IMG/VR virus record: IMGVR_UViG_3300028833_000061
Coordinates: 32,001 to 96,000 of that record
Source: a virus
Taxonomy: Duplodnaviria > Caudoviricetes
Direction: 5' to 3' (one strand)
DNA length: 64,000 bases
Under the pieces are notes generated by a model. The model was not told the DNA's origin and did no database searches. It saw only the letters and a list, made by a program, of their open reading frames with translations. How positions within the stretch are numbered: the stretch's first letter is position 1; every line of letters begins with the position of its first letter. Below, piece after piece: positions 1,501 through 18,748 of the stretch. The position numbers and the translations under genes are program-made.

Positions 1501-1917
1501 ATGATTTTTTCATGGGCCCGATTCGGATTTGTCGTCTACTCTCTTGAACGCTGTTGCAGTGGGGGAGCTCGAGGGGCTTGCCCCTCGTGTTATACGATCC
1601 CCATCAGCGGTTAACGAAGTGGTCGCTGATGTGTCCTTCGTAAGAAGGCAGTGTAACCAGTGTATAATGGCAGTGACCACTACAACACTACAACCGTTGT
1701 TCTGTTGTACAGTTCAACACTATAACAGTTAGGATTTTCAGATGCTCGATCAGAAAATCGTCTTTTTAGTACCCTTTTCGCAGATTTTTGGAAACAAAAA
1801 GTAATGACTTCGACGTACAGACCAGTCAAAAACCTAGTGTTTTGAAGGGTGCATACCGTCGTACACACTACTTATTTTTTCCGTGCATATAACCGCTACA
1901 AGATCAACAGTTAAAGC

Positions 1918-1944
1918 AAAAGCCCCCGGTGTTACCCGGGGGCT
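1918..1944 (-). terminator. intrinsic terminator
   Basis: AGCCCCCGG/CCGGGGGCT stem followed by TTT on the minus strand, just after the stop of 1958..3091. Confidence 0.8.
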
Positions 1945-1957
1945 CTGCTACAGAGAG

Positions 1958-3091
1958 CTAATCCTCTCCGTCAGGTGACGAGAAGTCATCCAGGCCTTGC
2001 AGCCTGAAGACTTCGCCAACGGTGATACCGCCAGCCTTAGGAGCCTCCTTGCGGATATCCCTTGGGACGAATCCTATTCTGCACCAGTAGTGCAGCGGCT
2101 TCTTCGGGTCTCCAAACGACAGGTTGCGCAGATCCTGGGCGTCGTTCACTGAGAATGCAGAGAACTCCTGGACTGCAACGCACACGTCGTCGACACGTCC
2201 TGAATCCAATGCAGTCTCGTACAGACACACATTGAGCTGCGGATTCTGCGTCTGGATGCGATTGATGGCCATTATAGATGGATCGACTCCTTCCACGTCA
2301 AACGGGACCGGCTCCCCTTTCTTTTCTCTTGAGATGTCGATAATAAGCGGAGCTATCATGGAGAACTTTTTAGGAGTGTCGCTCAGCTGCTCCATCTTGA
2401 TCGAATCCTTTATCATGGACTCCCAGGTGGAAGACCACACAAGGTCACGATCGGAGAGCCTCCACCTCTGTGCGGAGATCCACTTTAGTTGCTGGTGGCA
2501 GCGAGGACACTCGACATCCATATCTGTGAGATCCTTGAGCCCTTTGATGACAGTCTTCTCGTCGCCCTTATAAACCGCTACAGTGCGCTTCATATTCTTG
2601 CCGTTGATTTCCGTCTCGATTTCCTTGTTCACCGTGTTGGCGAACAGGACATCTTTGACGGTACGCACGATTGTGCCGCAACTCGGGCAGTTGCACCTCG
2701 CCGACGGTACGCTGACAAGACAAGGTCCACGAACCAAACTGACTCGCACTTTCCCTTCGAACTTGCTTTCCTTCGTCTTCTCGTCGTAGGTATAGCGCTC
2801 GAATTCGAGCTTTCTACGGGGACACGTAAGAACAACCTCATGGACGCTGTAGTCTTCGGTTTTGGAAGAGACGACGAGGTATCCTCTGATACCGGCTCCC
2901 TCGCTAGTCTCGACATGGAGCTTGCCCTTGGAATCTTTCGCCGACCGGATGTCGGTAAAGCCAAGATGACGAACTCCCTTATCTGCTGAATCGCTTCCTG
3001 GATACTTGCTATAAGGCATCACAAGGCAGCATGTAGCAGGCCCATGGTCCTGCAGGAACCCGCCAGGTTGGCGGTTCTTTTTGTTTTTCAT
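1958..3091 (-). CDS. hypothetical protein with zinc-ribbon motifs (CPSC, CPRC)
   Basis: 377 aa ORF with an A/C-rich leader (CAAACAAAAACAAACAAAAATG) and its own terminator. Confidence 0.75.
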   Translation of the reverse strand: MKNKKNRQPGGFLQDHGPATCCLVMPYSKYPGSDSADKGVRHLGFTDIRSAKDSKGKLHVETSEGAGIRGYLVVSSKTEDYSVHEVVLTCPRRKLEFERYTYDEKTKESKFEGKVRVSLVRGPCLVSVPSARCNCPSCGTIVRTVKDVLFANTVNKEIETEINGKNMKRTVAVYKGDEKTVIKGLKDLTDMDVECPRCHQQLKWISAQRWRLSDRDLVWSSTWESMIKDSIKMEQLSDTPKKFSMIAPLIIDISREKKGEPVPFDVEGVDPSIMAINRIQTQNPQLNVCLYETALDSGRVDDVCVAVQEFSAFSVNDAQDLRNLSFGDPKKPLHYWCRIGFVPRDIRKEAPKAGGITVGEVFRLQGLDDFSSPDGED

Positions 3092-3114
3092 TTTTGTTTG
3101 TTTTTGTTTGCACT

Positions 3115-3188
3115 CTCAGCCTAACCTAGAGAAAGCTGCCACGGCTAAGAAGGATGACAGCCCGGGAGAATGCTAGGTTACATCTCCC
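3115..3188 (-). ncRNA. putative structured 5' leader (four interlocking helices)
   Basis: pairings TAACCTAG/CTAGGTTA, GCTGTCA/TGGCAGC, GGGAGATG/CATTCTCCC, CTTAGCC/GGCTGAG; the mismatches are G-U pairs on the minus strand. Confidence 0.45.
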
Positions 3189-3218
3189 AATTAGTTATAA
3201 CGCAATTAGTTTGTATAA

Positions 3219-3452
3219 TTACGGCATGACAAGCCTGCCGGGTCGTGTTCTTCCGTTATACTCGTAATAACAACCCGTGGCGGCGTGTCTTTCATTTTCG
3301 GTGTAAAGATATTCGATAGGATCCTCTTCGATACATTCGCTTGCAGGAAACTTGTAACCCTGGTTTCCTACAAGCGCCTCGTGCTTCATGTTCATCATCA
3401 GGCATAATTGATGACGCTGTGCGTAATAGTATATTCTTCCGGCCTCAATCAT
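3219..3452 (-). CDS. small ORF at the distal end of the array (membership weak)
   Basis: MIEAGRIYY...ENER; overlaps the preceding ORF. Confidence 0.55.
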   Translation of the reverse strand: MIEAGRIYYYAQRHQLCLMMNMKHEALVGNQGYKFPASECIEEDPIEYLYTENERHAATGCYYEYNGRTRPGRLVMP

Positions 3453-3672
3453 AGTAGAATGGCTCCATTTCGAAACCGCACCATCGCGTGTGGTTTCTTT
3501 CCTCCTCGAACGGTTTCCTGTTCAAGGTTCCAGTAAGCACAAACAGCCTGTCGTAGCTCGAGATCCATTTTGTACGCACTAGAAGAATGTTCGATGCACC
3601 GTAGCGCTCTGCGTTGTATTTGTATACTGCCTCTCGCAGCTTTGACATGTCGTCTCTAGATGACTTAATCAT
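3445..3672 (-). CDS. array small protein (paralogue of 3665..3898)
   Basis: MIKSSR...KPFEEER...GFEMEPFYYD. Confidence 0.75.
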   Translation of the reverse strand: MIKSSRDDMSKLREAVYKYNAERYGASNILLVRTKWISSYDRLFVLTGTLNRKPFEEERNHTRWCGFEMEPFYYD

Positions 3673-3898
3673 AGAACGGCTCCAGCGCGAATCCGTGTCC
3701 CTTTGTAAACATCCTTTCCTGTTCGAACGGTTTTCCGCTGAGAGAGTTGGACAGCACGTATGAGCGTCTGTTGCTGAACACGTAGCTGAACATCCACGCG
3801 GGATGTATCAGAACGTTTGCGCACCTATTTCTAGAAGCGGCGAATTTATAGAACGCCTCGCCCAATATCGAAAATTTCTGCCTTGACGCCACCATCAT
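3665..3898 (-). CDS. array small protein
   Basis: MMVASR...KPFEQER...GFALEPFYD. Confidence 0.75.
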   Translation of the reverse strand: MMVASRQKFSILGEAFYKFAASRNRCANVLIHPAWMFSYVFSNRRSYVLSNSLSGKPFEQERMFTKGHGFALEPFYD

Positions 3899-4137
3899 CT
3901 CGTCATATCTATGCCTGTGAACACGTATCTTGAACTTGCATCGAACCTGCGCTCGTTAGGGCACAGCATGCAGTTCTTGAGAACAGTCTTAGGACTGTAC
4001 GGACCATAGTGCGGAGGACTATAAGGAGAAGGATAGTACTTTCTTCCCATCCTAAGACCAGGATATGCCAGCTTTGTGATGCTGTCGTGGGCCGCTCGCA
4101 TCATCTCTAAGTAATGCCTTGCATCTATGTGTCTCAT
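3895..4137 (-). CDS. array small protein
   Basis: MRHIDARHY...CPNERRF; ATGA overlap. Confidence 0.65.
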   Translation of the reverse strand: MRHIDARHYLEMMRAAHDSITKLAYPGLRMGRKYYPSPYSPPHYGPYSPKTVLKNCMLCPNERRFDASSRYVFTGIDMTR

Positions 4138-4403
4138 CAGTAGAATTGTTTTGATCTTTTACTGCCTGGATACCAGGCACCGAGACCGCAGATCGAACAA
4201 CCGTTGATGTCGTTATCTCGTTCAGCTCTGAACGGATGTGTATTCCTTAGAACGCCTTCAGGGTCTATTGGGCCATGTATAGTATTACCGAACAATCCAA
4301 GACTAGTAGGCCCAAGATGAAGGTACGGCGATACGATCTTGTCCACCGCTATGTATGTAGATTCCAGTTTTTGTTCAACATACCATCGCGTAATCCATCT
4401 CAT
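4137..4403 (-). CDS. array small protein
   Basis: MRWITRWY...HPFRAER; AGGAGG Shine-Dalgarno upstream. Confidence 0.65.
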   Translation of the reverse strand: MRWITRWYVEQKLESTYIAVDKIVSPYLHLGPTSLGLFGNTIHGPIDPEGVLRNTHPFRAERDNDINGCSICGLGAWYPGSKRSKQFY

Positions 4404-4411
4404 ACAACCTC

Positions 4412-4609
4412 CTATCTTCCGTACGCCCATCCTGAGCTGTTCACACGTCTTTCGACGTTGAACGGATGGACTATCCTGTCCTTGTCGTTGCCTACCGTGT
4501 TCCGTCGTCTGATCTGACCGAACTTGAGCAGGAGTTCAGTGTTGTCCCGATATATCATTCCAAGCCACCTGAGCTCTCCTGCAAGGCACCATCTTTTGAT
4601 TCTGCTCAT
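4412..4609 (-). CDS. array small protein
   Basis: MSRIKRW...HPFNVERR; ATGA overlap. Confidence 0.65.
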   Translation of the reverse strand: MSRIKRWCLAGELRWLGMIYRDNTELLLKFGQIRRRNTVGNDKDRIVHPFNVERRVNSSGWAYGR

Positions 4610-4839
4610 GAGAATATGCAGTCCATACTCTCTGCGCTGTATCTGTGCTTCACGTGCGGGAAATGAATATGGAAATTGAATATCTCTGCACGCTCGTCGT
4701 GCATAGGCCTGTAGTCAGGCCATGCTCCAGTGAGCGCGAATGGATTCATCAGAAACCAGTGCTTCAACTCATCTACGCCATACATTAGTGAGGCGTATTT
4801 AACGTGCAAGTAGTACTCGCTTCTGTATGCTCGTTTCAT
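4606..4839 (-). CDS. array small protein
   Basis: MKRAYRSEY...RPMHDER; start set at the ATGA overlap 4836-4839. Confidence 0.65.
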   Translation of the reverse strand: MKRAYRSEYYLHVKYASLMYGVDELKHWFLMNPFALTGAWPDYRPMHDERAEIFNFHIHFPHVKHRYSAESMDCIFS

Positions 4840-5084
4840 GCTAGTTGTATCGGCTTGTAGCGCTCTCCGGCGAAGAACCAGGTCTTGAGCTTGTCGTTCC
4901 AAGGATACTTGTAGATCCTCATGAACTGCTGGCGCTCCGTCTTCACCGGGTTGTGTATCGCTGCTGGCATGATTGGATACCTGCATCCGTCGAACTCCAA
5001 AAGCGTTTGTTCGCAGAAGGGTATGACTTCTATTCTAGTCAGCCTCTCCTGCTGGAACAGAAATCTCCTGGTTATACCAACCAT
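4836..5084 (-). CDS. array small protein
   Basis: MVGITRRF...HNPVKTERQQF. Confidence 0.7.
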   Translation of the reverse strand: MVGITRRFLFQQERLTRIEVIPFCEQTLLEFDGCRYPIMPAAIHNPVKTERQQFMRIYKYPWNDKLKTWFFAGERYKPIQLA

Positions 5085-5094
5085 CTGATTCCTT

Positions 5095-5343
5095 TCAGTT
5101 GAATTGTCTTATGTCGAAGCATCCGTTCTCGAACCAGCAGTACGGCCACTCCGCTTCTCGATCCCCCTCCATCTTTTTACGTATATATGAAGCAAAGTGG
5201 CGTCTTTCAGCATTGAACGGATGTCTTGTGATGGCCGGGATGGTGTCGGCTGGAGGCTCTATTATAAGATATGCCTGCCCGCTTACTCCACGAGGACAAA
5301 ACCTGTGGACGTAATTGAAGAAGCCCCTGTCTGATTTAATCAT
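5095..5343 (-). CDS. array small protein
   Basis: MIKSDRGF...RHPFNAERRHF. Confidence 0.7.
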   Translation of the reverse strand: MIKSDRGFFNYVHRFCPRGVSGQAYLIIEPPADTIPAITRHPFNAERRHFASYIRKKMEGDREAEWPYCWFENGCFDIRQFN

Positions 5344-5573
5344 AGGCAGAGCCTCATTTCACGTTTGGCATGCCCGGTGTAAACGAAGTCATATGCGTAC
5401 GTAACCGCAATCCTGAATGCCCTGCGCTCGTATCTGATGAAATCCCCGATCATGTGCGAATCCTTCTCCGGCCATCTGGCAGGAGGTATACGCATCAGGG
5501 CCATCTCGTTCCACTGCTCGCGCCTGACGTATCCAAGCTGCCAATTCCACGTCTTCCTTTCAAGGCCGATCAT
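5340..5573 (-). CDS. array small protein
   Basis: MIGLERKTW...FIRYERRAF. Confidence 0.7.
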   Translation of the reverse strand: MIGLERKTWNWQLGYVRREQWNEMALMRIPPARWPEKDSHMIGDFIRYERRAFRIAVTYAYDFVYTGHAKREMRLCL

Positions 5574-5797
5574 TTGAACTTGCCTCTAAGCTTTCCGCAC
5601 AGCGGCCCGTATACGTGGCCGCCGTGTATCTTCTGCATCTTAACGCCGGCACGTTCGTCGTTCATCGGATGGTACGGGTCGCCTCCCATCCAGTAGTCCT
5701 CTTCTGGCCACAGGCATTTCCTGTCAAAGCGTCTTGCTGCATCAAGCCGCGTAATTCTGTATGCCTGAAACAGATACTTCTTCTTCAGGTAAATCAT
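5570..5797 (-). CDS. array small protein
   Basis: MIYLKKKY...HPMNDER...FK*. Confidence 0.7.
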   Translation of the reverse strand: MIYLKKKYLFQAYRITRLDAARRFDRKCLWPEEDYWMGGDPYHPMNDERAGVKMQKIHGGHVYGPLCGKLRGKFK

Positions 5798-6021
5798 TTA
5801 AGATCCTTTGTGTTGTATGTCATTCCGCACACCCTGTAAAATTTGTTCAATGTCCTGTAATGCAGTCTTTCATATGTCTCAGGTTGCGGGAATATCGGTA
5901 GCATGTAAGTATTTTCGTTTCGATACGAGTTTCCGAAATACGTCCTGATTATCTCTATTCTGCTTGTGTTGAATACCGAGTGGTACGAACGGTACAGCCT
6001 TTCTCTCGATGCGAATATCAT
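5794..6021 (-). CDS. array small protein
   Basis: MIFASRERLY...PQPETYERLHY...LK*. Confidence 0.7.
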   Translation of the reverse strand: MIFASRERLYRSYHSVFNTSRIEIIRTYFGNSYRNENTYMLPIFPQPETYERLHYRTLNKFYRVCGMTYNTKDLK

Positions 6022-6045
6022 TCAAGCCTCCTTGCCAGCCCAGCC

Positions 6046-6231
6046 TCATCTGAACATCGACAACCGTATAGGATTTACACGCTCTTGCTCGTAAGGACGC
6101 CAATCGAACATTGTACGAGACAAGTACGGTGCCCTGCTGTATCCGAATACCGCAGGCGCCCTCTTGAGATCGTATGTTGCAAGAAGCGCCCTGTGATTGC
6201 GTGCGTGTATGTATCTTCTTGACGTCTTCAT
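6046..6231 (-). CDS. array small protein (triplet subfamily)
   Basis: YDLKRAPAVFGYSRAPY...DWRPYEQER...FR*. Confidence 0.7.
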   Translation of the reverse strand: MKTSRRYIHARNHRALLATYDLKRAPAVFGYSRAPYLSRTMFDWRPYEQERVNPIRLSMFR

Positions 6232-6404
6232 TTGAACCAACCTGCGTGCGCACGCCTGTCTGCGTCGAACGGACGCCAGTCGACAATCGTTGCGATTCTA
6301 GGAACCTTGTCGAATCCGAAGAGGTACCAGCTCTTTTTCCAGTCATACGATATGACTAGCGACTGGTGATACCTGCGGTGGATGTGCCTTCTTGCCAGCC
6401 TCAT
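6228..6404 (-). CDS. array small protein (triplet subfamily)
   Basis: MRLARRH...YDWKKSWYLFGFDKVP...DWRPFDADRR...FK*. Confidence 0.7.
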   Translation of the reverse strand: MRLARRHIHRRYHQSLVISYDWKKSWYLFGFDKVPRIATIVDWRPFDADRRAHAGWFK

Positions 6405-6583
6405 TTGAACGTTCCGTCCATTCTTACGCAGATTCTTTCGATACTCTGTGGCCTGTAGTCCCTTAGCATACTGATGTAAGGCACTTTGTCGTACCCAAAT
6501 ATGACGGGTGCGTTCTTGACGTCGCATGACCACATCATCCACCTTAGATACATGTGGTATGTGCGTCTTATTGCCAGCCTCAT
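6401..6583 (-). CDS. array small protein (triplet subfamily)
   Basis: MRLAIRR...DVKNAPVIFGYDKVPY...DYRPQSIER...FK*. Confidence 0.7.
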   Translation of the reverse strand: MRLAIRRTYHMYLRWMMWSCDVKNAPVIFGYDKVPYISMLRDYRPQSIERICVRMDGTFK

Positions 6584-6801
6584 TTGTACCTCGACACCCT
6601 ATACGTTGTTCCACGGAACACAGCCCAGCATTCATGCCGTCTCTTCGCCTCGGCAAGCCTGTCTCTCTCGTCTCTTACAATGTGTTTCGGATACGAGTGG
6701 TGGTTTGGTTTGATTCTAAGTTTTGCGCAAGAATCGTAATCAACTACGCCAATCTCCCAGTTAAGCTCATGTCGATACATATACCTTTTGAAGTTTATCA
6801 T
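6580..6801 (-). CDS. array small protein
   Basis: MINFKRYMY...HIVRDER...YK*. Confidence 0.7.
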   Translation of the reverse strand: MINFKRYMYRHELNWEIGVVDYDSCAKLRIKPNHHSYPKHIVRDERDRLAEAKRRHECWAVFRGTTYRVSRYK

Positions 6802-7040
6802 CTGTACTTAAGGTAGTATTCCTCGTCATTCTTAGGCGCTCCCGGATCTATACAGTTTATATATCCAAATGTTCCGTGAATAGCCTCCCAGCGCTCAGCT
6901 CTGAACGGCCTGTAAGGATTTATAATGTGCGCATCGTTGTACAGCCTTAGCTTCGTCTGTGAATTCCAATTGCAGTCACTTGTATACTGAAGGCTGTCGT
7001 GCAGCTTTCTATGCCAATTGATTCTAGTAAGCATTATCAT
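6798..7040 (-). CDS. array small protein
   Basis: MIMLTRINW...RPFRAERW...YR*. Confidence 0.7.
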   Translation of the reverse strand: MIMLTRINWHRKLHDSLQYTSDCNWNSQTKLRLYNDAHIINPYRPFRAERWEAIHGTFGYINCIDPGAPKNDEEYYLKYR

Positions 7041-7267
7041 TTGAAGTCGCTCACTCTCCTTAGTATGCCGTCGTACCAGAACCATCGATGGTCTGTACGA
7101 AACGAATCCCGATAAGCCGAGCAATTCAGGCTCTCACGTTCGCCGCACGGAGCATTGTCTATGTACGTGAACGTCCTGGACGGATCCTGCAAATGTGCCT
7201 TGCACAAGTCAAGATCCTTGTATCCATAGAATCCACGAGTGTATCTTGGTCTTGTGTAGCCTATCAT
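7037..7267 (-). CDS. array small protein
   Basis: MIGYTRPRY...APCGER...FK*. Confidence 0.7.
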   Translation of the reverse strand: MIGYTRPRYTRGFYGYKDLDLCKAHLQDPSRTFTYIDNAPCGERESLNCSAYRDSFRTDHRWFWYDGILRRVSDFK

Positions 7268-7470
7268 ATGTAGTTACCTGGTGATATGTTGTGGGTCTTA
7301 ATACTACAAAAGTGATCCCTTTCGTACGTCACAGGATTCGGATGCCACGACGGTTCGTTCAAAATCAGGATGCTCCTAAGGCCCAGCTTGAATTCATCGT
7401 CCTTCTTGTTCGTTATACTCCTGAAGTATCCAAGCCTGAACGCGTACCCGCGCCTACGCCATACGATCAT
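7264..7470 (-). CDS. array small protein
   Basis: MIVWRRRGY...PNPVTYERDHF. Confidence 0.7.
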   Translation of the reverse strand: MIVWRRRGYAFRLGYFRSITNKKDDEFKLGLRSILILNEPSWHPNPVTYERDHFCSIKTHNISPGNYI

Positions 7471-7676
7471 GAGTCATAGCGGAATGGCCACAGCTTGAGG
7501 CGGTGTTTCCGCAGCTCTTCCTTGTTCTTGAACAGCACGCGCTCGTCCTCGGTAGGAGTCCAGTTGGAATATGACTTGTACTGATCGACGATGTACGCCG
7601 CCTCGCACGTGCACGGCTTTCTTTTTTTCTCGGTCTTTAACGCGGCGAAATATTGCCATCTGCTACAGTTTATCAT
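7467..7676 (-). CDS. array small protein
   Basis: MINCSRWQY...TPTEDERVLF. Confidence 0.7.
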   Translation of the reverse strand: MINCSRWQYFAALKTEKKRKPCTCEAAYIVDQYKSYSNWTPTEDERVLFKNKEELRKHRLKLWPFRYDS

Positions 7677-7861
7677 TTGTATTGGTACAGGTCATGATGC
7701 CACTGGAATCGTAGCCGCTCGTAATATATTACGCCCGGCAGGTGAATCTTGTAGGACTTCTTTGTAAGCAGATCCAGAAGTTCCCGATCGTTGATGTTTT
7801 TCGTGGATTCGTTGGCTTCCTTCAGGTCGACAAGATAGTCCCATCTGTTGTACTTTATCAT
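7673..7861 (-). CDS. array small protein
   Basis: MIKYNRWDY...PGVIYYERLRF...YK*. Confidence 0.7.
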   Translation of the reverse strand: MIKYNRWDYLVDLKEANESTKNINDRELLDLLTKKSYKIHLPGVIYYERLRFQWHHDLYQYK

Positions 7862-8106
7862 GTGAACATGCTCGTAGGTTTCCACCTTATCCACGAGCCG
7901 GCCATAAGCAGCCCGCATCTTCTGCGGTATGCATCATCGTCGATAGCTGCATTTAGATACTTGCGCTCTTCGCTGAATATGTCCTTTGGCGGTATAACAC
8001 TGACGAATCTGGAACACTTGTGCCTCTCTATCGCATAGTCGCTTTCTATGTGCCTTCCCTCGAACAAGAAGTCTATTTCATACTTGTGCCTGGTGTAGTT
8101 GATCAT
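7858..8106 (-). CDS. array small protein
   Basis: MINYTRHKY...PPKDIFSEERKY. Confidence 0.7.
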   Translation of the reverse strand: MINYTRHKYEIDFLFEGRHIESDYAIERHKCSRFVSVIPPKDIFSEERKYLNAAIDDDAYRRRCGLLMAGSWIRWKPTSMFT

Positions 8107-8330
8107 TTAAATATGCTCCTTGAGATCCACTCGTCGTATAGTCCGAGGGCAGGAAACCAGCCGATGACACGCATCCTTTCGTAGACCCTTATGAATTCCG
8201 TCCTCTCGTACCTGTCCGGGTATGGCGCGCTTGGCATACTTATGTGGTCTATATTCCACTTAAGGTCGACACGCTCGCACAGTGCAATCTCGTAGCCCTC
8301 GTAGTAACGTCGCCTGCTTACGTTGATCAT
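8103..8330 (-). CDS. array small protein
   Basis: MINVSRRRY...PYPDRYERTEF...FK*. Confidence 0.7.
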   Translation of the reverse strand: MINVSRRRYYEGYEIALCERVDLKWNIDHISMPSAPYPDRYERTEFIRVYERMRVIGWFPALGLYDEWISRSIFK

Positions 8331-8539
8331 TTTATCAAGTCCATCCAGCAGTAATTGCCGTAGAACCACAGGCACGGCTTGTCGGTGTGTACCATAGAGT
8401 TCAGCCTGCGTCTCTCGCTCTTGTCTGGATTTTCTTCTATGTATCTTTTTCCTCGCGTAGGCCACGACACGTGACTGCAGTAGTATTTCACTGTATTCTC
8501 GTGACCGGTCAAGTAGGATGCTCTGTGAATGTTGATCAT
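8327..8539 (-). CDS. array small protein
   Basis: MINIHRASY...NPDKSERRR...IK*. Confidence 0.7.
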   Translation of the reverse strand: MINIHRASYLTGHENTVKYYCSHVSWPTRGKRYIEENPDKSERRRLNSMVHTDKPCLWFYGNYCWMDLIK

Positions 8540-8781
8540 CTTATGTCCCTATAATTTACATCGTACGCACGCACAGACAGAGGAGGCGGCGGCGAAACAT
8601 GCAGGTACGCGATCATGTCATTGTATCCGTGGATCCTGTCCCTCTCGTAGCTGTCTGGCTTTCCAGGGAACCTGAAAGTTCCAAAGTCATAGAATTCACT
8701 GTCGAACAGACGAGGATGTGCCCTGCTTCTGATGACCATTTCAAGCATGTCCAGGTACTGTTGCTTTCCGAAGTTTATCAT
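8536..8781 (-). CDS. array small protein (close paralogue of 8778..9005)
   Basis: MINFGKQQY...RAHPRLFD...GKPDSYERDRI...IR*. Confidence 0.8.
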   Translation of the reverse strand: MINFGKQQYLDMLEMVIRSRAHPRLFDSEFYDFGTFRFPGKPDSYERDRIHGYNDMIAYLHVSPPPPLSVRAYDVNYRDIR

Positions 8782-9005
8782 CTTATTTCGTAGTATCCTA
8801 CCTTGTACATCCTGACAGACAGGTCAAGCCTGCAGTTGATCCTGTTGTATGTGTCGATACGGCTCCTCTCGTAACTATCAGGCTTTCCGGTAAACGGACC
8901 ATGACCAACATCGTATAATCCGTAGTCGAACAGGAAAGGATGCGCTCTGTTGTAGTTGAGAGCCTTCAGCATTCCACAATACTGTCGCTTGCCAAAATTG
9001 ATCAT
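8778..9005 (-). CDS. array small protein
   Basis: MINFGKRQY...RAHPFLFD...GKPDSYERSRI...IR*. Confidence 0.8.
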   Translation of the reverse strand: MINFGKRQYCGMLKALNYNRAHPFLFDYGLYDVGHGPFTGKPDSYERSRIDTYNRINCRLDLSVRMYKVGYYEIR

Positions 9006-9214
9006 CTGAACATGCGCAACGGTGTGCGGTAGATGTACTTAGGTTGACTGTAGCTATCGATAAGCCTTCTGTGCCGAAGCCTCTCGTCGTAAGGAGGATT
9101 GTACCTAACCATGAAGTATTCGCCATTCCGCGGGAATACGCTCTCGGGCTGCATGTTCTTCACGGCCGCCCTACGGTAGCACTCGACATGCCATCTGCGT
9201 ATAGTAAGACTCAT
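9002..9214 (-). CDS. array small protein (paralogue of 9211..9423)
   Basis: PESVFP...RYNPPYDER...FR*. Confidence 0.7.
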   Translation of the reverse strand: MSLTIRRWHVECYRRAAVKNMQPESVFPRNGEYFMVRYNPPYDERLRHRRLIDSYSQPKYIYRTPLRMFR

Positions 9215-9423
9215 ATCAGCATACTCCTGAAATCGAATCCGCGTATCCATCGTTCATGAGTATGGTGCTTGTTTGCCCCGTACACAATCTTCCGCTCCCT
9301 GTCGAACGGATTGTACCTCGAATACGCACATTTAAACTTCTTTGGAAACAGCGAATCGGGTTCTGCGCTTCCGCGCAGTTCCTTGAAGAAGTAATACCAC
9401 ATGTATCGGTATTCGCGTATCAT
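9211..9423 (-). CDS. array small protein
   Basis: MIREYRYMW...PDSLFP...RYNPFDRER. Confidence 0.7.
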   Translation of the reverse strand: MIREYRYMWYYFFKELRGSAEPDSLFPKKFKCAYSRYNPFDRERKIVYGANKHHTHERWIRGFDFRSMLI

Positions 9424-9674
9424 CTTAGATTATCCATGTTTACTCTAGAGTATCTGAATCTGCCAAATCTGCCGAGCTCGATCCGTCTGCTCTTGAAATA
9501 TCTAAGCTGTGTTCTTTCGCTGAACACCGGATCTTCCTCGAGTATCCAATGCCTTGACTCTGGAATCTCGAACATGTGTTTTAACTCAGGTGCAGGAATA
9601 AGGTCCTTGTTCCTGCTGTCGAAGTTGGCACCGCGAAGTCCTAGCTCGTAGCTTATCCTGCCGACGTGTATCAT
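9420..9674 (-). CDS. array small protein (paralogue of 9671..9919)
   Basis: MIHVGRISYELGL...RNK...LEEDPVFSER...LR*. Confidence 0.75.
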   Translation of the reverse strand: MIHVGRISYELGLRGANFDSRNKDLIPAPELKHMFEIPESRHWILEEDPVFSERTQLRYFKSRRIELGRFGRFRYSRVNMDNLR

Positions 9675-9919
9675 CGTATGTTCTCCGCGGATACTAGGAG
9701 TCCTCTTATGTTGGCCCGGTCCCAGCCACGCACTCTGAAAAGATAGTCTATGCGCTCCCTCTCGTGCCACACTGGATCTTCCTCCAACGGAAACGGTCCT
9801 CCGCCCCATATAGCATCTTCACCCAGCCCTTTTGGCTCAGGCATTACGCTCTTGTTCCTGCAGTTGTATACCGTGTCGCAGAGTCCCATGTCGTAGCTTT
9901 TTCTGCTTACTCCTATCAT
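9671..9919 (-). CDS. array small protein
   Basis: MIGVSRKSYDMGL...RNK...LEEDPVWHER...IR*. Confidence 0.75.
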   Translation of the reverse strand: MIGVSRKSYDMGLCDTVYNCRNKSVMPEPKGLGEDAIWGGGPFPLEEDPVWHERERIDYLFRVRGWDRANIRGLLVSAENIR

Positions 9920-10203
9920 CTGTATACCTCGAACTTTATGCCGTCCCTTCTGTGAAGAGCCCGGCTGATGCCGGCCGCTTCGAACAGCGCAATGCGCAAT
10001 CCGCTCATTGCATTGAGACAGTTCAGGTAGCCACGCACGCCCTTGGATATTCGATACATCTTGAACAGCTTCCTTTCGCTGTCGTCGACACAGCATCTGT
10101 ACGGGCCGTTGTCGACTGTACCGTTGATCTGGTTGTTGTAGGCGTCGTGCGCCAACTCGAGGCAGGTGTAGAACTTGTCCCTGTTCCAAATCTTGCTAAG
10201 CAT
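9916..10203 (-). CDS. array small protein
   Basis: MLSKIWNRDKFY...DDSERKLF...YR*. Confidence 0.6.
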   Translation of the reverse strand: MLSKIWNRDKFYTCLELAHDAYNNQINGTVDNGPYRCCVDDSERKLFKMYRISKGVRGYLNCLNAMSGLRIALFEAAGISRALHRRDGIKFEVYR

Positions 10204-10576
10204 CGTCTCTTCTCCCGTATCTGGACAAAAGCGCATACCAGTGCATGTTGGTTATCGTGCCAAGCGCGCATGCGCCCAGTTCCGGCAGCATGTCGTACAG
10301 CATCACGTCCTTGTACTTCTCATAGTAGTACTTGCGAGAGTAGTCTCCGTCAATCGGAGGATTCCACAAGGATCTCAGCCTGTGAAACCACGCGCACGCT
10401 CCGGGATAGTACGTCCTCTCAGAGTGCAATCCTAGCAGATCGACCACATCCACCTTGCGGCTGTACCACTCGCCTTCTCTGCCTGGATGCTGATACATGA
10501 ACGTCTGTGAGTTGTTCCTGAGTATCTTTAAATTTTCCCAGTCGACGTCGTACCTGCGCCTTGTGTACCCAAGCAT
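10196..10576 (-). CDS. array protein (longer member)
   Basis: MLGYTRRRY (compare MIGYTRPRY, MINYTRHKY)...HSERTY. Confidence 0.65.
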   Translation of the reverse strand: MLGYTRRRYDVDWENLKILRNNSQTFMYQHPGREGEWYSRKVDVVDLLGLHSERTYYPGACAWFHRLRSLWNPPIDGDYSRKYYYEKYKDVMLYDMLPELGACALGTITNMHWYALLSRYGRRDDA

Positions 10577-10998
10577 CAGCACAGCTCCTTCCACAAGTTT
10601 GTCCTGAATCTGAACAGCTTTTCAGTGAAGCTCGGCCGAAGTCCAGGCGTATACTGAAAGTCGTTCATCAGTGCGTTCACGAGCCTGGACATGTACGATG
10701 ACGGGCACGGCATAAGTCCAAGATGCCCGGCCTTTCTTCCTCTGCCATAGTCGTATTCGTCGAAGCAGCTGCTCGTGCAGAATCGCTCTTCGTCGATGTC
10801 CATAAATCCGGTAAGCTGATACGTGCTCACTGAATGGCAGTCACGAGGATCGAACGATCCAAAGTAGTTCGTGCCAAGCTGTATAACCGACATCCCGAAA
10901 TCGAACGACTGCCCCCTGAGAAGACATTCGTCGTGGAACAGCCGCACGCAGGCCATGTCTGAAACAGTCTTCCAGTAGAGTTGTCTTTTGTTCCTCAT
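10576..10998 (-). CDS. first ORF of the array (longer member)
   Basis: MRNKRQLYW...DIDEERF; stop overlaps the next start. Confidence 0.6.
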   Translation of the reverse strand: MRNKRQLYWKTVSDMACVRLFHDECLLRGQSFDFGMSVIQLGTNYFGSFDPRDCHSVSTYQLTGFMDIDEERFCTSSCFDEYDYGRGRKAGHLGLMPCPSSYMSRLVNALMNDFQYTPGLRPSFTEKLFRFRTNLWKELC

Positions 10999-11006
10999 TG
11001 TGAAAA

Positions 11007-11130
11007 GCAATCAGGGCCCGAGGATCGGCTCTAACGATCATCTCGGCTCCCAAGACGTGTTTTTAGTTCCAGGCGCCACCCATTAAGACGCCTGCCCACA
11101 CGGGCTTTAAACTACACGGGCCCTGATTGC
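11007..11130 (-). ncRNA. putative structured RNA closed by a perfect 14 bp terminal stem
   Basis: GCAATCAGGGCCCG...CGGGCCCTGATTGC; internal hairpins GCCC/GGGC, CAGGCG/CGCCTG and GATCG-TTAGAGC-CGATC. Confidence 0.55.
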
Positions 11131-11133
11131 AAA

Positions 11134-11207
11134 TGGAGCGACGTGCGGGAGTCGAACCCGCCTGACTAGCTTGGAAGGCTAGGACCCAGCCGCTAGGCCA
11201 ACGTCGC
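11134..11207 (-). tRNA. tRNA-Gly(TCC)
   Basis: cloverleaf; anticodon arm CTAGC-CT-TCC-AA-GCTAG; GGTTCGACTCC T-arm; encoded CCA. Confidence 0.93.
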
Positions 11208-12324
11208 ACTGTGTTTTGTTAATAGCCGCCGCTTCTCGTCTGCGCTTTCTGCCGAATTTGTTTCGACCCATCCATGTTGGAGATTGCGAGTCGCAGTTTG
11301 GACAGACAAGCCGGATATTTTCAATGACGTTATTATCGGCGTTTCCGTCGATGTGGTCAACTATAAGCGTCAAGTGCTTGCCGTTCCATTTGCTCCTTCC
11401 GCATATTGCGCATTTGTATCCGCTTGTTCTAGATATATAAAGAACAACTTCTTCACGCTTTATCTCCTGTCCTTGTTTGCTGAAGTATCCTCTTTCCTCT
11501 ACTTCCTGTATAACAATTTTCTTTTTATATTCATTGCAACACGCATGTGAACAGAATTTTTGGTCGCTATAGTGTTTTTTGCGTACAAATTCTTTTCCGC
11601 AATTAAGACATGTCAAGTGAGCCTTTTCAAATCTATCACTTAACAACTTTGAGGCACATGCACGAGAGCAACATACTTGCTCACATCCTCTGCTAAATGT
11701 TCTCTTTTTAAATGTTTTTCCGCATACAGGACATGTTCTAACTAGATCAGGGCGCCGTATTCTCCAGTCAACAATCTTTTTATGGCGTTGTTTCATAGTT
11801 TCACTAAGAACTTTACCCCAGCACTTCGAAGAACAATAAGTCTGACGTACCCGGCCATGAAAACTCTTTCCGCAAACTGGGCATATTTTATACAGACGCT
11901 TTCCTTTACATGCACATCTATGGCTACAGTATATGTGTCCTTCCTGGCTGATTTTTCTTTTATAAGCCAGTTTTCCTTTTGTTACGAAGAACTTTTTACC
12001 ACATGTCGGGCAAGTTACTTCTACCCGTGCTGCGTTTTTTCTTGCTTTGCATCCGCATTTTGGACTGCAATACACATGGCCACCTACGTTATTTTTGATA
12101 GATACTTTCAGCTTTCGTGCAGATATTAGAAACTTTTTACCACAGGTGTGGCACACAGCTTCTACGGTGGCTGCAATTTTTTTAGCTTTGCCAACACATG
12201 CTCTGCTGCAATATACGAAGCCACCAGCATTTCTTGTGGCCGCGCGTTTAAGTTTTTGCTTTTCTATCAGAAACAACTTGCCACAGGTGTGGCACGTAGC
12301 TTCTACGAAGTTATTTCCACCCAT
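11179..12324 (-). CDS. HNH endonuclease with ~6 N-terminal CxxC...(Y/F/C)CSxxC zinc-finger (TRASH-like) repeats; probable free-standing homing endonuclease
   Basis: C-terminal LIVDHIDGNADNNVIENIRLVCPNCDSQ; repeated VEAxCHTCGKxF...YCS modules; visibly AT-richer than the flanks; lies between tRNA genes. Confidence 0.88.
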   Translation of the reverse strand: MGGNNFVEATCHTCGKLFLIEKQKLKRAATRNAGGFVYCSRACVGKAKKIAATVEAVCHTCGKKFLISARKLKVSIKNNVGGHVYCSPKCGCKARKNAARVEVTCPTCGKKFFVTKGKLAYKRKISQEGHIYCSHRCACKGKRLYKICPVCGKSFHGRVRQTYCSSKCWGKVLSETMKQRHKKIVDWRIRRPDLVRTCPVCGKTFKKRTFSRGCEQVCCSRACASKLLSDRFEKAHLTCLNCGKEFVRKKHYSDQKFCSHACCNEYKKKIVIQEVEERGYFSKQGQEIKREEVVLYISRTSGYKCAICGRSKWNGKHLTLIVDHIDGNADNNVIENIRLVCPNCDSQSPTWMGRNKFGRKRRREAAAINKTQCDVGLAAGS

Positions 12325-12355
12325 TGCTTAGATTGAAACATTGGTTGAAAAACTA

Positions 12356-12428
12356 TGGAGTCTATGGGAGTCGAACCCATTAAAACCTGCGTGCAAGGCA
12401 GGCGCACCAACCGCTATGCGCAGACCCC
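12356..12428 (-). tRNA. tRNA-Ala(TGC)
   Basis: anticodon arm CCTGC-CT-TGC-AC-GCAGG; G3:U70 Ala identity pair present. Confidence 0.92.
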
Positions 12429-12434
12429 GTAAGA

Positions 12435-12519
12435 TGGCTCCAGAGACAGGACTCGAACCTGTAGTTGCTTTCGCCACGGATTAACAATCCGCTGCCATAC
12501 CAATTAGGCTGACTCTGGA
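12435..12519 (-). tRNA. tRNA-Asn(GTT) with long variable arm
   Basis: CGGA-TT-GTT-AA-TCCG; extra arm GGCGAAAGCAAC; G73 and CCA. Confidence 0.9.
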
Positions 12520-12537
12520 ATAGGTGGAACGGCGCCT

Positions 12538-12565
12538 ATAGTATCACAGCGCCGTATCCAGTCAA
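12538..12565 (-). promoter_or_regulatory. sigma70-like promoter for the tRNA/HNH/array transcript
   Basis: TTGACT-16-TACTAT with extended -10 TG; -10 lies inside a CGGCGC/GCGCCG inverted repeat. Confidence 0.65.
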
Positions 12566-12669
12566 CTACTTTCTGTGATCCTTGCCGTCGCAGCCGAGCG
12601 CCACAATAAGCGCAACGACCATACCGACGACGACTATCACGTAGACTGCTACATCGTGCATCGCTTCTT

Positions 12670-12891
12670 TTATACTTCGGACATGCGATTGACGTCGTCG
12701 ATCAGAGCGCCTATAGCCACCAGAAGATATCTCACGAACGTAGCATCCGTGCACTTGTTGCCGTGGCTTTCAAGATACGCACGTGCTTCCGTTAGCATGT
12801 CGTATGCCTTGGACGACGCTACGTACCGAAGGTTCTTCTCTGTGAAGAACTTCGTCAGAGTGTCGTAGGCCTTCTTTGTGTCCTCATCCAC
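12670..12891 (-). CDS. hypothetical protein
   Basis: 73 aa ORF with GAGGAGG upstream. Confidence 0.55.
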   Translation of the reverse strand: MDEDTKKAYDTLTKFFTEKNLRYVASSKAYDMLTEARAYLESHGNKCTDATFVRYLLVAIGALIDDVNRMSEV

Positions 12892-12935
12892 GAGAGATCC
12901 TCCTCTTCGTCGTACATTTCCTCGTCAACTTCCAT

Positions 12936-13742
12936 CTAGACCTCCACGACTGTATTGTACCAGTGAGACGTGTCAAGCACTTCCGGGAACTTGTCCGGAT
13001 AGCCCCAGGTCATACCGTGATATCCGACAGCGTTGCGAATATAACGAACTCCGTCGATGGTCTGGTCATCGAATCCGTGCGAGTGTCCCCAGATCCAGAG
13101 ATCCGGCTTCAGGTCGGTGAACGAATCGTCACACACGCAATACGTAGCGTTAAGGCCGAAGTACTTGCCATCGGCAGAGATCTCGTCAGCATATCGATCT
13201 GATATAAGCTCCTTCCGAGGGCCGGTATGCGTAACAATGACTCGCTTTAGGCCTTCGTACTGTGCATACTTGTCCCGGATCCACTTGGCGCATTCCCTGA
13301 AGTATTCGGTCTGCGTCCTTGCCGACCATCCCTTGATCCAGTTGAAGTCGTTCATACCCTGCTCGACGATCCAGCCGTCACGTTCGTTTATGTCCAGAGG
13401 CGCCCAGGCCGACACGCCGAATATCGCGACATCTCCGTCGACGACATCAATGTACTTGGCATCCTTCGCCTTAGGCGCCTTATTCTGGTTAGCGAACCGC
13501 ATAACCGTGTTGTTTCCCCACAGATCGTGGTTGCCCTCGATGGCCAGGACGTCCTTGAACTTGTCGGATGTCCTCTCCTTGAGCTCCTTGTACACCTTTT
13601 CCCAGGTGCTCTTAAGCCCGAGGTCGCCTGCAACCACAAGATAGTCCGCAGGCTCCAGCTGGTCAGGATCGAATGTCTCCCATACGACCTTTCCTGCCTT
13701 AAGATTGTTCCTGTGTATGTCCGATATGATGTTAAGTCTCAT
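12936..13742 (-). CDS. calcineurin-like metallophosphoesterase
   Basis: ISDIH, AGDLG, GNHD, VTH, WGHSH motifs. Confidence 0.9.
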   Translation of the reverse strand: MRLNIISDIHRNNLKAGKVVWETFDPDQLEPADYLVVAGDLGLKSTWEKVYKELKERTSDKFKDVLAIEGNHDLWGNNTVMRFANQNKAPKAKDAKYIDVVDGDVAIFGVSAWAPLDINERDGWIVEQGMNDFNWIKGWSARTQTEYFRECAKWIRDKYAQYEGLKRVIVTHTGPRKELISDRYADEISADGKYFGLNATYCVCDDSFTDLKPDLWIWGHSHGFDDQTIDGVRYIRNAVGYHGMTWGYPDKFPEVLDTSHWYNTVVEV

Positions 13743-13842
13743 TTACATTCTCCATGGCTTTGGCTTCATCTGTTGTTTATCCAGGCGATCACGCAGATAG
13801 CGGTGCAGAGGCATGCCAAGCCAAACACGTCAGGCCAGCTCA

Positions 13843-14652
13843 TCACCACGAACTCACGTACCTGAAGTCCCAATCGTCGAAATTGGGATCCTGCAGGATG
13901 TCCCTAACTATCTCAATCGTCCGGTTTACGTCCTCGAAGTATCCCCAGTTATACGCCGTCATTCCGAAGAAGAAACCTTCTGCCGTAGGAAAGACACTAT
14001 CCAGATCGCGAACGTATGGAGAGTCCTTTGGCAACATGAATTCAAAGTCTGCTTCTTGCTCGTCAACCTGCTTGAGAGGATCGTACTCCTTGTACGCGTG
14101 CTCCCTGATGGCTGGAGTGTCGATGGCCGACTTGAATATGTCGTGTGCCCTTTCGAGCGCCTGCAGCAGCTTCTGGAAGTCGTCCCTCGTGATGTGCCTG
14201 GACGGCTGGCACTGGTCGACCCCGTTCTGGCAGTTCTTTACGAACCACGCATGCAAGGCGTTGAACTTGCGCCAGTATGCGAATTCGTTGTCGTAGATAA
14301 GGCTGATGGCCTCAGAGACCGGATTGCACTTGTATATGTCCTTGCAATCCAGCTTGATTACGACCACACCGTCCATGTTCTCCCTGCTTGTGACGTCCCA
14401 CATAAAGTCTCCGATATGTTCTTTATACATGTTCCTTAGGATGGTCCTGGCCTCCGATCGGATGCGCCTGTCTATCTCGAGATCGTTCTCTGTCTCGCAG
14501 TAGAACTTCTCTGGAATACGCACCGTTATCTCCACCGGTCCTTCATCGATAAGGACATCGCTGTCTTCGTCATCTCCGAAATCCGCGTCTATAGTCAGAT
14601 TCGGATCGATCATTCCCTTCGGCACTCTGCCGAGAGTCATGTCTAGTCCCAT
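13843..14652 (-). CDS. conserved phage hypothetical protein (YWRKxNALHxWF family)
   Basis: MGLDM start; FAYWRKFNALHAWFV; FPTAEGFFFG; C-terminal YVSSW. Confidence 0.75.
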   Translation of the reverse strand: MGLDMTLGRVPKGMIDPNLTIDADFGDDEDSDVLIDEGPVEITVRIPEKFYCETENDLEIDRRIRSEARTILRNMYKEHIGDFMWDVTSRENMDGVVVIKLDCKDIYKCNPVSEAISLIYDNEFAYWRKFNALHAWFVKNCQNGVDQCQPSRHITRDDFQKLLQALERAHDIFKSAIDTPAIREHAYKEYDPLKQVDEQEADFEFMLPKDSPYVRDLDSVFPTAEGFFFGMTAYNWGYFEDVNRTIEIVRDILQDPNFDDWDFRYVSSW

Positions 14653-14666
14653 GATTTTCTCCTTTG

Positions 14667-14876
14667 CTACCAAGCGTCTCTCTGGTCCCAGTCATCGCCG
14701 GAACCAGAAATCAGATCGAACAGAAGCATCGTGATCAGCATTGCCAATATAGCAGGCCATGCCATGGCGAAGCCGAGCAGATGAAGCATCTTTCTACGGT
14801 CGCTCCACCATAGGAACAGCCCTATAACGGCCAGTCCTATGATGAAATACGCTACTGCAATCAGCAGGTATGTCAT
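14667..14876 (-). CDS. small membrane protein
   Basis: two hydrophobic segments; start MTYLL. Confidence 0.55.
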   Translation of the reverse strand: MTYLLIAVAYFIIGLAVIGLFLWWSDRRKMLHLLGFAMAWPAILAMLITMLLFDLISGSGDDWDQRDAW

Positions 14877-14891
14877 TTGTGTCCTTTCAAA

Positions 14892-14975
14892 TGGTGGGCA
14901 AGGCGGGAGTCGGACCCGCACGGGTTTCCCCACATGATCCTAAGTCATGCGTGTCTGCCATTCCACCACATGCCC
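14892..14975 (-). tRNA. tRNA-Leu(TAG)
   Basis: CATGA-CT-TAG-GA-TCATG; long variable arm; CCA. Confidence 0.92.
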
Positions 14976-15215
14976 TTGGTGTTCAGAACCGTTCTCTTTG
15001 GACAGGTCAGTCCTATTCAGACGGTCATATTCAATTGCATATTTGAGATAGCGGTTGAGTGCAGTGTCAAGCTCTTTAAGCAGCTTGTCATCAGGCTCTT
15101 CGGTCGTAGGCTGCGCCTGCCATATCTTAAGGATGGCAGCATAGATGTCTGCATTCAGCTGCCCACCAGGTCCGAGAAGCTCTTCAAGCTCTTCATTGCG
15201 TTTCTTGACTTCCAT
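14940..15215 (-). CDS. hypothetical protein; 3' end overlaps tRNA-Leu
   Basis: MEVKKRNEELEELL..., helical. Confidence 0.5.
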   Translation of the reverse strand: MEVKKRNEELEELLGPGGQLNADIYAAILKIWQAQPTTEEPDDKLLKELDTALNRYLKYAIEYDRLNRTDLSKENGSEHQGHVVEWQTRMT

Positions 15216-15227
15216 CGTCTTTAAAAA

Positions 15228-15304
15228 TGGTGTCCCAGAGAGGATTCGAACCTCCGACAAGCAGTGTAGGAGACTGCTGCTCTGTCCAGCTGAGCTACTG
15301 GGAC
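15228..15304 (-). tRNA. tRNA-Arg(CCT)
   Basis: GCAGT-CT-CCT-AC-ACTGC; canonical D and T arms; CCA. Confidence 0.93.
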
Positions 15305-15310
15305 TTTATT

Positions 15311-15544
15311 CTATTCCTCGTACTCCACCCAGGTTATCGTAGATCGTCCGTTCTGGCCGTTCTCGATGCAGATCTCATAGTCTCCAACGTCCGCATCCTC
15401 ATCGTTCTCGTAACTCTCCTGGAGCTCCTTCCACGCATCATCAAGTCCCTTCCTTGTAGTATACGGGCCTGAAACCGTGTTGACCTCTCCGACGAACTCA
15501 CTGGAGTACGTTACGCACTCCACGATCAAATACTTCACAGCCAT
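15311..15544 (-). CDS. hypothetical acidic protein
   Basis: 77 aa ORF in the gene chain. Confidence 0.6.
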   Translation of the reverse strand: MAVKYLIVECVTYSSEFVGEVNTVSGPYTTRKGLDDAWKELQESYENDEDADVGDYEICIENGQNGRSTITWVEYEE

Positions 15545-17037: not shown

Positions 17038-17048
17038 TTTTGGTCTCC

Positions 17049-17134
17049 TGGTGCCGGCAGGGGGACTTGAACCCTCATGGGATTTCTCCCGGGAGATTTT
17101 GAGTCTCCTGCGTCTGCCTTTCCGCCATACCGGC
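17049..17134 (-). tRNA. tRNA-Leu(CAA)
   Basis: GGAGA-CT-CAA-AA-TCTCC; long variable arm; CCA. Confidence 0.93.
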
Positions 17135-17137
17135 ATG

Positions 17138-17211: not shown

Positions 17212-17228
17212 GAAAGCAAATTATGATA

Positions 17229-17615: not shown

Positions 17616-17616
17616 G

Positions 17617-18731: not shown

Positions 18732-18748
18732 TGTGTTTTGGTTGGTTG

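Follow-up and report, generated by a model that had tools for sequence, protein, structure and literature searches.

A window of 64,000 nt was analysed here, which comprises bases 32001-96000 of the viral record IMGVR_UViG_3300028833_000061 (201,401 bp, rated complete). Between positions 3219 and 10998 of this window, the minus strand carries an array of 33 consecutive small open reading frames (ORFs), m01 (10576-10998) to m33 (3219-3452). With 32 of them (58-126 aa), the array forms one protein family, whose signature is M-I-x3-R-x2-Y at the N-terminus and P-x3-E-R in the centre. Almost certainly, this is a lineage-specific family: A single gene encoding a small basic protein (about 60-80 residues) gave rise to about 32 tandem copies, each of which was kept coding. 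Unequal crossing-over led to gain, loss and recombination of copies, at times precisely at the DNA encoding P-x3-ER. The array displays what characterises a tandem lineage-specific expansion of mini-proteins, i.e. mutual homology, contiguity on one strand with neighbours being more alike, and copy-number turnover combined with faster evolution than that of the flanks. The family is new. Its kind, a tandem mini-protein expansion in a phage, is already known, for instance from phage G (see below). What stands out is the number of copies (32, or 3.9% of the 201-kb genome), along with the length of the coupled chain and the conservation of the leader. DNA of the array is present in gut metagenomes of sheep, goat and cattle (12 studies). 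Therefore, the source is an uncultured jumbo phage of ruminant guts.

Layout of the array

An earlier note, made from the sequence of this DNA, had reported about 32 consecutive small ORFs on the minus strand. When the start nearest to the preceding stop is chosen in each case, 33 are found: 28 encode 58-84 aa, two 95-97 aa and the three at the 5' end 95-140 aa. ATGA start/stop overlaps occur at 24 of the 32 junctions within the array versus 22 of 163 same-strand junctions elsewhere in the genome. The remaining junctions comprise two overlaps of 1 nt and three of 8 nt, two short gaps and the junction at m29, whose start is uncertain. The starts that follow the gaps, m22 and m26, are each preceded by their own Shine-Dalgarno (SD)-like site. 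Many of the ATGA-coupled starts lack such a site in their vicinity; in the entire phage genome, about 39% of the genes have one. Sigma-70-like promoters and intrinsic terminators were searched for inside the array and yielded matches at chance level only. Because of the single strand, the lack of promoter or terminator signals above chance, the 24 ATGA overlaps and the many starts without an SD-like site, the array looks built for translation as a chain. Termination-reinitiation would then yield roughly equal amounts of each member. The long chain of ATGA overlaps, many of them without a nearby SD-like site, is a natural test bed for translational reinitiation. ORFs on the plus strand that overlap the array (e.g. 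9832-10500) were rejected as genes: Selection acts in the minus-strand frames.

Common origin of the copies

Each ORF was ranked with a leave-one-out (LOO) profile hidden Markov model (HMM), for which close paralogues were also removed, against a background of 2342 other ORFs of the genome. Sixteen of the 33 ORFs ranked first, and most of the others were among the top 10. At rank 459 of 2343, m01 is not detectable as a member of the family; the other 32 ORFs belong together. BLASTP links several neighbours directly: m08/m09 (1e-23), m31/m32 (6e-17), m19-m21 (1e-9 to 1e-14) and m04/m05 (1e-9). When a profile of the upstream half was aligned with one of the downstream half using hhalign, each enriched with orthologues, a probability of 88.5% and an E value of 2.7e-6 were obtained, and the alignment extends from residue 1 through the ER motif. 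Most copies are less than 30% identical to each other. Adjacent copies are more similar than distant ones, and none of 5000 permutations of their order was as extreme. Such an order is predicted by tandem duplication. The proposal that one ancestral mini-protein was expanded about 30-fold and diversified is, thus, borne out by the LOO ranks, the half-profile alignment and the similarity of neighbours. The family HMM detected no further member elsewhere in the 201-kb genome and none in three unrelated phage loci.

Peptide motifs and junction signals

The motif counts were compared with 2000 composition-preserving shuffles and exceed them by far. P-x3-ER is present in 22 of the 33 ORFs (shuffle expectation 0.78, maximum 5), P-x(2-4)-ER in 23 (2.2 expected). 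ER occurs anywhere in 32 ORFs (13.2 expected), and the remaining one has DR at the aligned position; this means, the E-R pair (D-R in m20) aligns in every member. At the N-terminus, M-x4-R is found in 26 ORFs (3.7 expected) and the full MI-x3-R-x2-[YFW] in 15 (0.04 expected); 17 ORFs have a C-terminal [FYILM][KR] (1.6 expected). P-x3-ER is 37-fold denser in the array than in the rest of the genome with its 214 genes (8.5 versus 0.23 per 1000 aa), and none of the 48 other small genes contains it. The reported richness in Arg, Tyr, Phe, His and Trp holds for all five residues (R 11.2% versus 5.3% in the rest of the genome, Y 7.7 versus 3.8, W 2.5 versus 1.3, H 3.4 versus 1.7 and F 5.2 versus 4.0). 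The isoelectric point (pI) of most members is about 9-10, that of m04 (5.8), m33 (5.9) and m09 (6.8) near-neutral or acidic. Core members contain 0-3 Cys each, which are not conserved.

The core motif uses CCG, CCT or CCA for P, GAG or GAA for E and both AGR and CGN for R. For the N-terminal R and Y, the information is concentrated in the first two codon positions. Since synonymous codons vary in this way, the core motif and the N-terminal R and Y are, as judged from the codons, conserved as peptide. A different picture emerges at the junctions. Where genes overlap by ATGA, the last sense codon has to end in A (AAA or AGA in 18 cases), and the second codon has to begin with A (ATH in 20 cases). 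The resulting junction consensus T-T-C-A-R-ATGAT is one nucleotide signature read in two frames. Hence, all three anchors that had been proposed are present and the core is a peptide signal, but the M-I start and the C-terminal [FY][KR] are in part by-products of the ATGA overlap. Selection at the junctions may be directed at the ends of the peptides or at the site of reinitiation. DNA repeats in the array are limited to the segments encoding the motifs and to the junctions, and a non-coding repeat was rejected as explanation for this reason.

Turnover and selection in relatives

The array is kept in three related metagenomic stretches found by exact-protein look-ups. L002 shares 85-89% nt identity with the window and has 28 HMM-detectable members versus about 32 in the window. 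L003 plus L009 is a partial stretch from one sample. L008 is a more distant relative with 20 HMM-detectable members. In all three, frames, starts and motifs are retained. The pooled dN/dS ratio (omega, Nei-Gojobori) of the array amounts to 0.35 for L002, 0.40 for L003 and about 0.25 for L008, the last with dS near saturation, versus 0.16 and 0.14 for flanking genes. This dN/dS check on orthologue pairs reveals selection that is purifying but relaxed compared to the flanks. Mean aa identity to L008 is 59% in the array versus 69-91% in five flanking genes. Among orthologues, positions 1, 2, 4-6 and 9 as well as P with the residue following it, E and R of the core motif are kept best, and the C-terminal third is the least conserved part. 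Omega values of 1 or above were obtained for only three orthologue pairs, m10 and m12 with L003 and m15 with L002, each based on few substitutions. The substitution patterns firmly indicate that the array evolves about twice as freely as its neighbours, with each copy under purifying selection. The first two ORFs (10196-10998) are longer and better conserved than most members: m01 and m02 are 88-94% identical to their L002 counterparts (omega 0.16-0.18), and m01 shows 88-91% aa identity in L002 and L008 (omega 0.18-0.37).

Turnover can be followed at individual genes. At the m04/m05 position, L002 has only one gene (6961-7206), which matches m04 at 87-97% identity over nt 1-150 and is closer to m05 thereafter. 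By its sequence, it is a natural chimera generated by unequal crossing-over, joined at the P-V-x-x-E-R codons. The pair m08/m09 of the window corresponds to a single gene in the relatives. No match to the array was found in 50,697 phage records (megablast), and scans with the neighbouring 377-aa protein, Metallophos and DNA polymerase genes did not find relatives. Distant Metallophos homologues (P0010, P0012 and P0022) were discarded as relatives of the array: They belong to unrelated phages without any array. An apparent skip from 1587 to 11146 in run X10 was disregarded, as it rests on a 25-letter side beside a tRNA.

A structured leader RNA

Between tRNA-Gly and m01, a structured RNA leader is predicted (Table 1). 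It is multi-branched and closed by a perfect 14-bp stem (11007-11020 with 11117-11130). In all three relatives, it is about 97% identical, whereas the neighbouring coding DNA is 83-89% identical. The leader is single-copy in the genome and has no match in Rfam. As m01 heads a chain of coupled cistrons, one may speculate that the leader RNA could gate the whole array.

Database searches and structure prediction

The 33 members were scanned singly against Pfam-A, PHROGs v4, NCBIfam and PADLOC-DB. No family was matched by more than one member, and the best E values were 0.007-0.09, so no individual member belongs to a known family in these libraries. In these general libraries, no member matched a known anti-defence protein. 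Likewise, no member matched DNA- or RNA-binding families or solved structures; the best hit of a profile search in PDB sequences had an E value of 0.65. A word-indexed search of 5.8 billion proteins returned only orthologues from the same phage lineage (58-83 aa). The result was the same when 1.84 billion cluster representatives were searched exhaustively with the HMM (60-82 aa), and no fused form of the family was found among these matches. The earlier impression that no known family is involved is, hence, confirmed. The ESM Atlas yielded no match for m01, and the best one for m10 scored 0.82, i.e. at chance level.

AlphaFold2 (AF2) models were computed for m10 and m20 with family alignments of 59 and 64 sequences and reached predicted local distance difference test (pLDDT) scores of 55 and 60, respectively. 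In both low-confidence models, an N-terminal helix covers the first motif, and a second helix starts at the motif Pro and carries E-R-x-x-hydrophobic. A Foldseek comparison of both models with BFVD and PDB gave no match, which at this model confidence is uninformative on the fold. The E-R-x-x-[FLIY] stretch after Pro and the I2/R6/Y9/L13 spacing would fit two amphipathic helices, and a Pro at the start of a helix would fit a structural scaffold element as well as the docking site that had been suggested.

Table 1. Leader RNA and ORFs of the array. Positions refer to the window; LOO rank, leave-one-out profile rank among genome ORFs, close paralogues excluded.
Feature	Position	Strand	Size	Core motif	LOO rank	Remarks
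leader RNA	10998..11133	-	125 nt			structured; between tRNA-Gly and m01; minimum free energy -63.8 kcal/mol, z -4.9 versus shuffles
m01	10576..10998	-	140 aa		459	lead cistron; seven Cys; lineage-specific
m02	10196..10576	-	126 aa	ER at residue 53	3	C-terminal extension; starts M-L-G-Y-T-R-R-R-Y; own SD-like site
m03	9916..10203	-	95 aa	ER at residue 43	2	marginal member; ends Y-R
m04	9671..9919	-	82 aa	PVWHER	1	paralogue of m05 (E 1e-9)
m05	9420..9674	-	84 aa	PVFSER	1	
m06	9211..9423	-	70 aa	PFDRER	1	LOO E 2e-5
m07	9002..9214	-	70 aa	PPYDER	1	
m08	8778..9005	-	75 aa	PDSYER		53% identical to m09 (E 1e-23)
m09	8536..8781	-	81 aa	PDSYER	1	
m10	8327..8539	-	70 aa	PDKSER	1	omega 0.75-1.15 versus orthologues; AF2 pLDDT 55
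m11	8103..8330	-	75 aa	PDRYER	1	same sequence on 4 public contigs
m12	7858..8106	-	82 aa	FSEER	1	starts MINYTRHKY
m13	7673..7861	-	62 aa	IYYER	1	starts MIKYNRWDY
m14	7467..7676	-	69 aa	PTEDER	1	no orthologue among called genes of L003 and L008
m15	7264..7470	-	68 aa	PVTYER	1	
m16	7037..7267	-	76 aa	PCGER	32	weak member; starts MIGYTRPRY
m17	6798..7040	-	80 aa	PFRAER	1	
m18	6580..6801	-	73 aa	VRDER	3	starts MINFKRYMY
m19	6401..6583	-	60 aa	PQSIER		m19-m21 subfamily (E 1e-9 to 1e-14)
m20	6228..6404	-	58 aa	PFDADR		shortest member; D replaces E; AF2 pLDDT 60
m21	6046..6231	-	61 aa	PYEQER		L002 orthologue without motif (changed C-terminus)
m22	5794..6021	-	75 aa	PETYER	9	new coupling block; 25-nt gap with AAGGAGG upstream
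m23	5570..5797	-	75 aa	PMNDER	6	omega 0.12
m24	5340..5573	-	77 aa	IRYER	6	
m25	5095..5343	-	82 aa	PFNAER	1	
m26	4836..5084	-	82 aa	PVKTER	6	own SD after 11-nt gap
m27	4606..4839	-	77 aa	PMHDER	6	
m28	4412..4609	-	65 aa	PFNVER	6	omega 0.11
m29	4137..4430	-	up to 97 aa	PFRAER	1	start 4430 or 4403 uncertain; no orthologue among called genes of L002 and L008
m30	3895..4137	-	80 aa	CPNER	4	
m31	3665..3898	-	77 aa	PFEQER		43% identical to m32 (E 6e-17)
m32	3445..3672	-	75 aa	PFEEER	1	
m33	3219..3452	-	77 aa	TENER	8	last member; starts MIEAGRIYY; 79-97% identity to orthologues

Possible functions of the array products

R, Y, W and H dominate both the hot spots of protein interactions and nucleic-acid contacts. 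The array products may constitute a mixed panel of binders with specificity for variable host molecules, i.e. counter-defence or host-takeover factors. This reading is tentatively favoured, because the composition is hot-spot-like, the array is located in an accessory region, its copies undergo birth and death, and the T-even internal proteins (IPs) and tifA provide precedents. The conserved I2, R6, Y9 and P-x3-E-R-x-x-hydrophobic most likely form a scaffold, in which an N-terminal amphipathic helix is packed on a helix capped by Pro. Variation is found in the connecting segment and in the tail at the C-terminus. In a panel of binders, each paralogue would be retained for handling a different host variant or target. 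Many small genes of large phages lack an explanation, and arrays such as this one provide the clearest evolutionary evidence of their importance: Each of about 32 copies is selected for amid turnover of the set. Should the products be specific inhibitors of host factors, about 30 natural binders would be available from one phage and, in addition, a read-out of the defence diversity in a major rumen bacterium.

Several points weigh against a panel of binders. A confident fold was not obtained (AF2 pLDDT 55 and 60, no Foldseek match). Overall omega is below 1, and any arms race would be hypothetical. Strongly basic, aromatic-rich mini-proteins suit nucleic-acid binding at least equally well. Furthermore, parts of the array are covered by contigs from RNA libraries (two metatranscriptomes of a single sheep sample) with 100% identity, but the depth of these contigs is below that of the downstream genes and the libraries may contain DNA; being contigs, they are uninformative on transcription, strand and transcript ends. 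A more far-reaching version is rather doubtful. According to it, all binders would be built on one two-helix scaffold, and the motif DNA would serve as a recombination joint at which N- and C-terminal halves of neighbours are shuffled, as in the m04/m05 chimera, to create new specificities against polymorphic host defence proteins. Termination-reinitiation would provide an equimolar cocktail, gated at m01 by the leader RNA.

Nucleic-acid binding is the main rival, albeit a somewhat unlikely one. The members would be specific regulators, RNA or tRNA binders with differing preferences, or DNA-coating proteins, and the conserved helices would form the binding core. The pI values of mostly about 9-10, 11.2% Arg and the doubled Tyr, Trp and His contents are in accordance with this, as is the location of the array within a zone of 16 tRNA genes, directly after tRNA-Gly. 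Moreover, the zinc-ribbon expansion of phage G (about 35 copies) was read as transcription factors or structural DNA-binding proteins (PMC7824862). However, no DNA- or RNA-binding family or solved structure was matched, some members (m04, m33 and m09) are near-neutral or acidic, and about 30 equimolar regulators in one operon would be without obvious logic.

It is improbable that the members are packaged into the virion and ejected like the T-even IPs, with the N-terminal nonapeptide as packaging address and the variable bodies acting on cell entry. Small, basic proteins with hyper-variable bodies behind a short conserved N-terminus are exactly what has been described for the T-even IPs (PMC3012670). 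On the other hand, the array lies outside the structural region, its members have a second conserved motif in mid-protein that IPs would not need, and inspection of the sequences revealed neither L/I-x-E nor another common protease-type cleavage motif after the N-terminal segment. In addition, at least eight other proteins of the phage (see below), but none of the array members, have a different leader in common, M-T-x-x-F-K-x-G-F.

Still less probable is one assembly, in which the members are subunits of a hetero-oligomer or interchangeable adaptors for one partner (e.g. m01 or the 377-aa protein encoded downstream), and coupling fixes the stoichiometry. The 24 ATGA overlaps point to synthesis in equimolar amounts, conservation is higher in m01 and m02 than in most members, and the shared motifs could be a common contact, but copy numbers of 20, 28 and about 32 among close relatives indicate that members are freely lost, unlike those of a fixed complex. 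A functionless array of neutrally expanding or untranslated small ORFs, which might be suspected from a family without known function that is confined to one lineage, the poor structure models and the loss of the motif in the L002 orthologue of m21, is hardly credible, as three diverged relatives retain the frames, starts and motifs at omega values of 0.25-0.40, the motif residues are the best-conserved orthologue positions, and 7.8 kb of dead weight are unlikely to last in a packaged genome.

Comparison with known systems

In Bacillus phage G, a family of zinc-ribbon mini-proteins has undergone lineage-specific expansion to about 35 copies (Iyer et al. 2021, PMC7824862). Like the source of the array, phage G is a jumbo phage that carries one small family of undemonstrated function in about 30-35 copies; the authors proposed transcription factors or structural DNA binders. 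In contrast to phage G, zinc ribbons are absent from the array members (0-3 Cys, not conserved), their sequences are unrelated to that family, and the copies form one uninterrupted, translationally coupled tandem chain.

The T-even internal proteins IPI, IPII and IPIII are encoded at polymorphic loci and inhibit host defence nucleases (PMC3012670). As in the array, they are small basic proteins that are extremely diverse between and within phages and share only a short N-terminal signature. They are encoded near head or tRNA genes of T4-like phages. However, there are only few IPs per genome compared to 32 copies with a second, mid-protein motif in the array. Furthermore, the N-terminal capsid-targeting sequence of IPs is cut by the prohead protease, whereas no cleavage site is visible in the array members.

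In T4, the counter-defence gene tifA undergoes segmental 'accordion' amplification (PMC9391042). Here too, a small accessory gene is tandem-multiplied by recombination and its copy number changes between close relatives. The tifA amplicons are recent, identical and selected for dosage, whereas the array is ancient, with most copies below 30% identity and under individual purifying selection.

An array of precursors of ribosomally synthesised and post-translationally modified peptides (RiPPs) would show at least 20 strongly conserved N-terminal residues, bodies rich in C, S and T and a maturase gene next to it. The array members have only about nine such residues and bodies rich in R, Y and W, and no modifying-enzyme domains were found in the flanking genes examined.

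Genomic surroundings

Almost all genes of the phage are located on the minus strand of its genome. The genome encodes a DNA polymerase of family A, helicases (DnaB-like and others), an SbcC-like protein and a recombinase resembling UvsX. For the polymerase, identity to the enzymes of cultured phages does not exceed about 24%.

The array is situated in a tRNA-bearing accessory zone outside the structural module. All 16 tRNA genes of the genome lie within 27 kb around it (genome 29391-56590), with eight just upstream in the window (11134-18831: Gly-TCC, Ala, Asn, three Leu, Arg-CCT and Lys) and three downstream in the genome. Both AGR-reading tRNA-Arg species are included. AGR accounts for 65% of the Arg codons in the array versus 55% elsewhere.

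Upstream of the array, an HNH endonuclease of 381 aa is encoded at 11179-12324 on the minus strand, which contains about eight zinc-ribbon-like repeats (C-x2-C...C-x3-C); the 3' end of its gene overlaps tRNA-Gly. The gene is missing at the same site in L002, L008 and a goat-gut metagenome. Therefore, it looks like a mobile insertion.

Directly 3' of the array, a 377-aa protein with two C-x2-C pairs is encoded at 1958-3091 on the minus strand. It did not match any family. The protein is fast-evolving, with 71-73% aa identity to L002 and L008 and saturated dS, and its gene has the highest depth among the RNA-library contigs of the region. A protein with an HTH_3/HTH_31 domain is encoded at 561-1481, two genes downstream of the array, with the 377-aa gene and a 476-nt gap in between. 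In anti-CRISPR or anti-defence operons of the Acr-Aca type, an HTH regulator (Aca) would come immediately after the small accessory genes.

The start M-T-x-x-F-K-x-G-F is shared by at least eight otherwise dissimilar proteins (genome 743-6047, 171666-175449 and 200760-201086) and may be a common assembly or targeting leader. These proteins are encoded at both ends of the linear record, those with low coordinates within a few kb of a tail-fibre-like gene.

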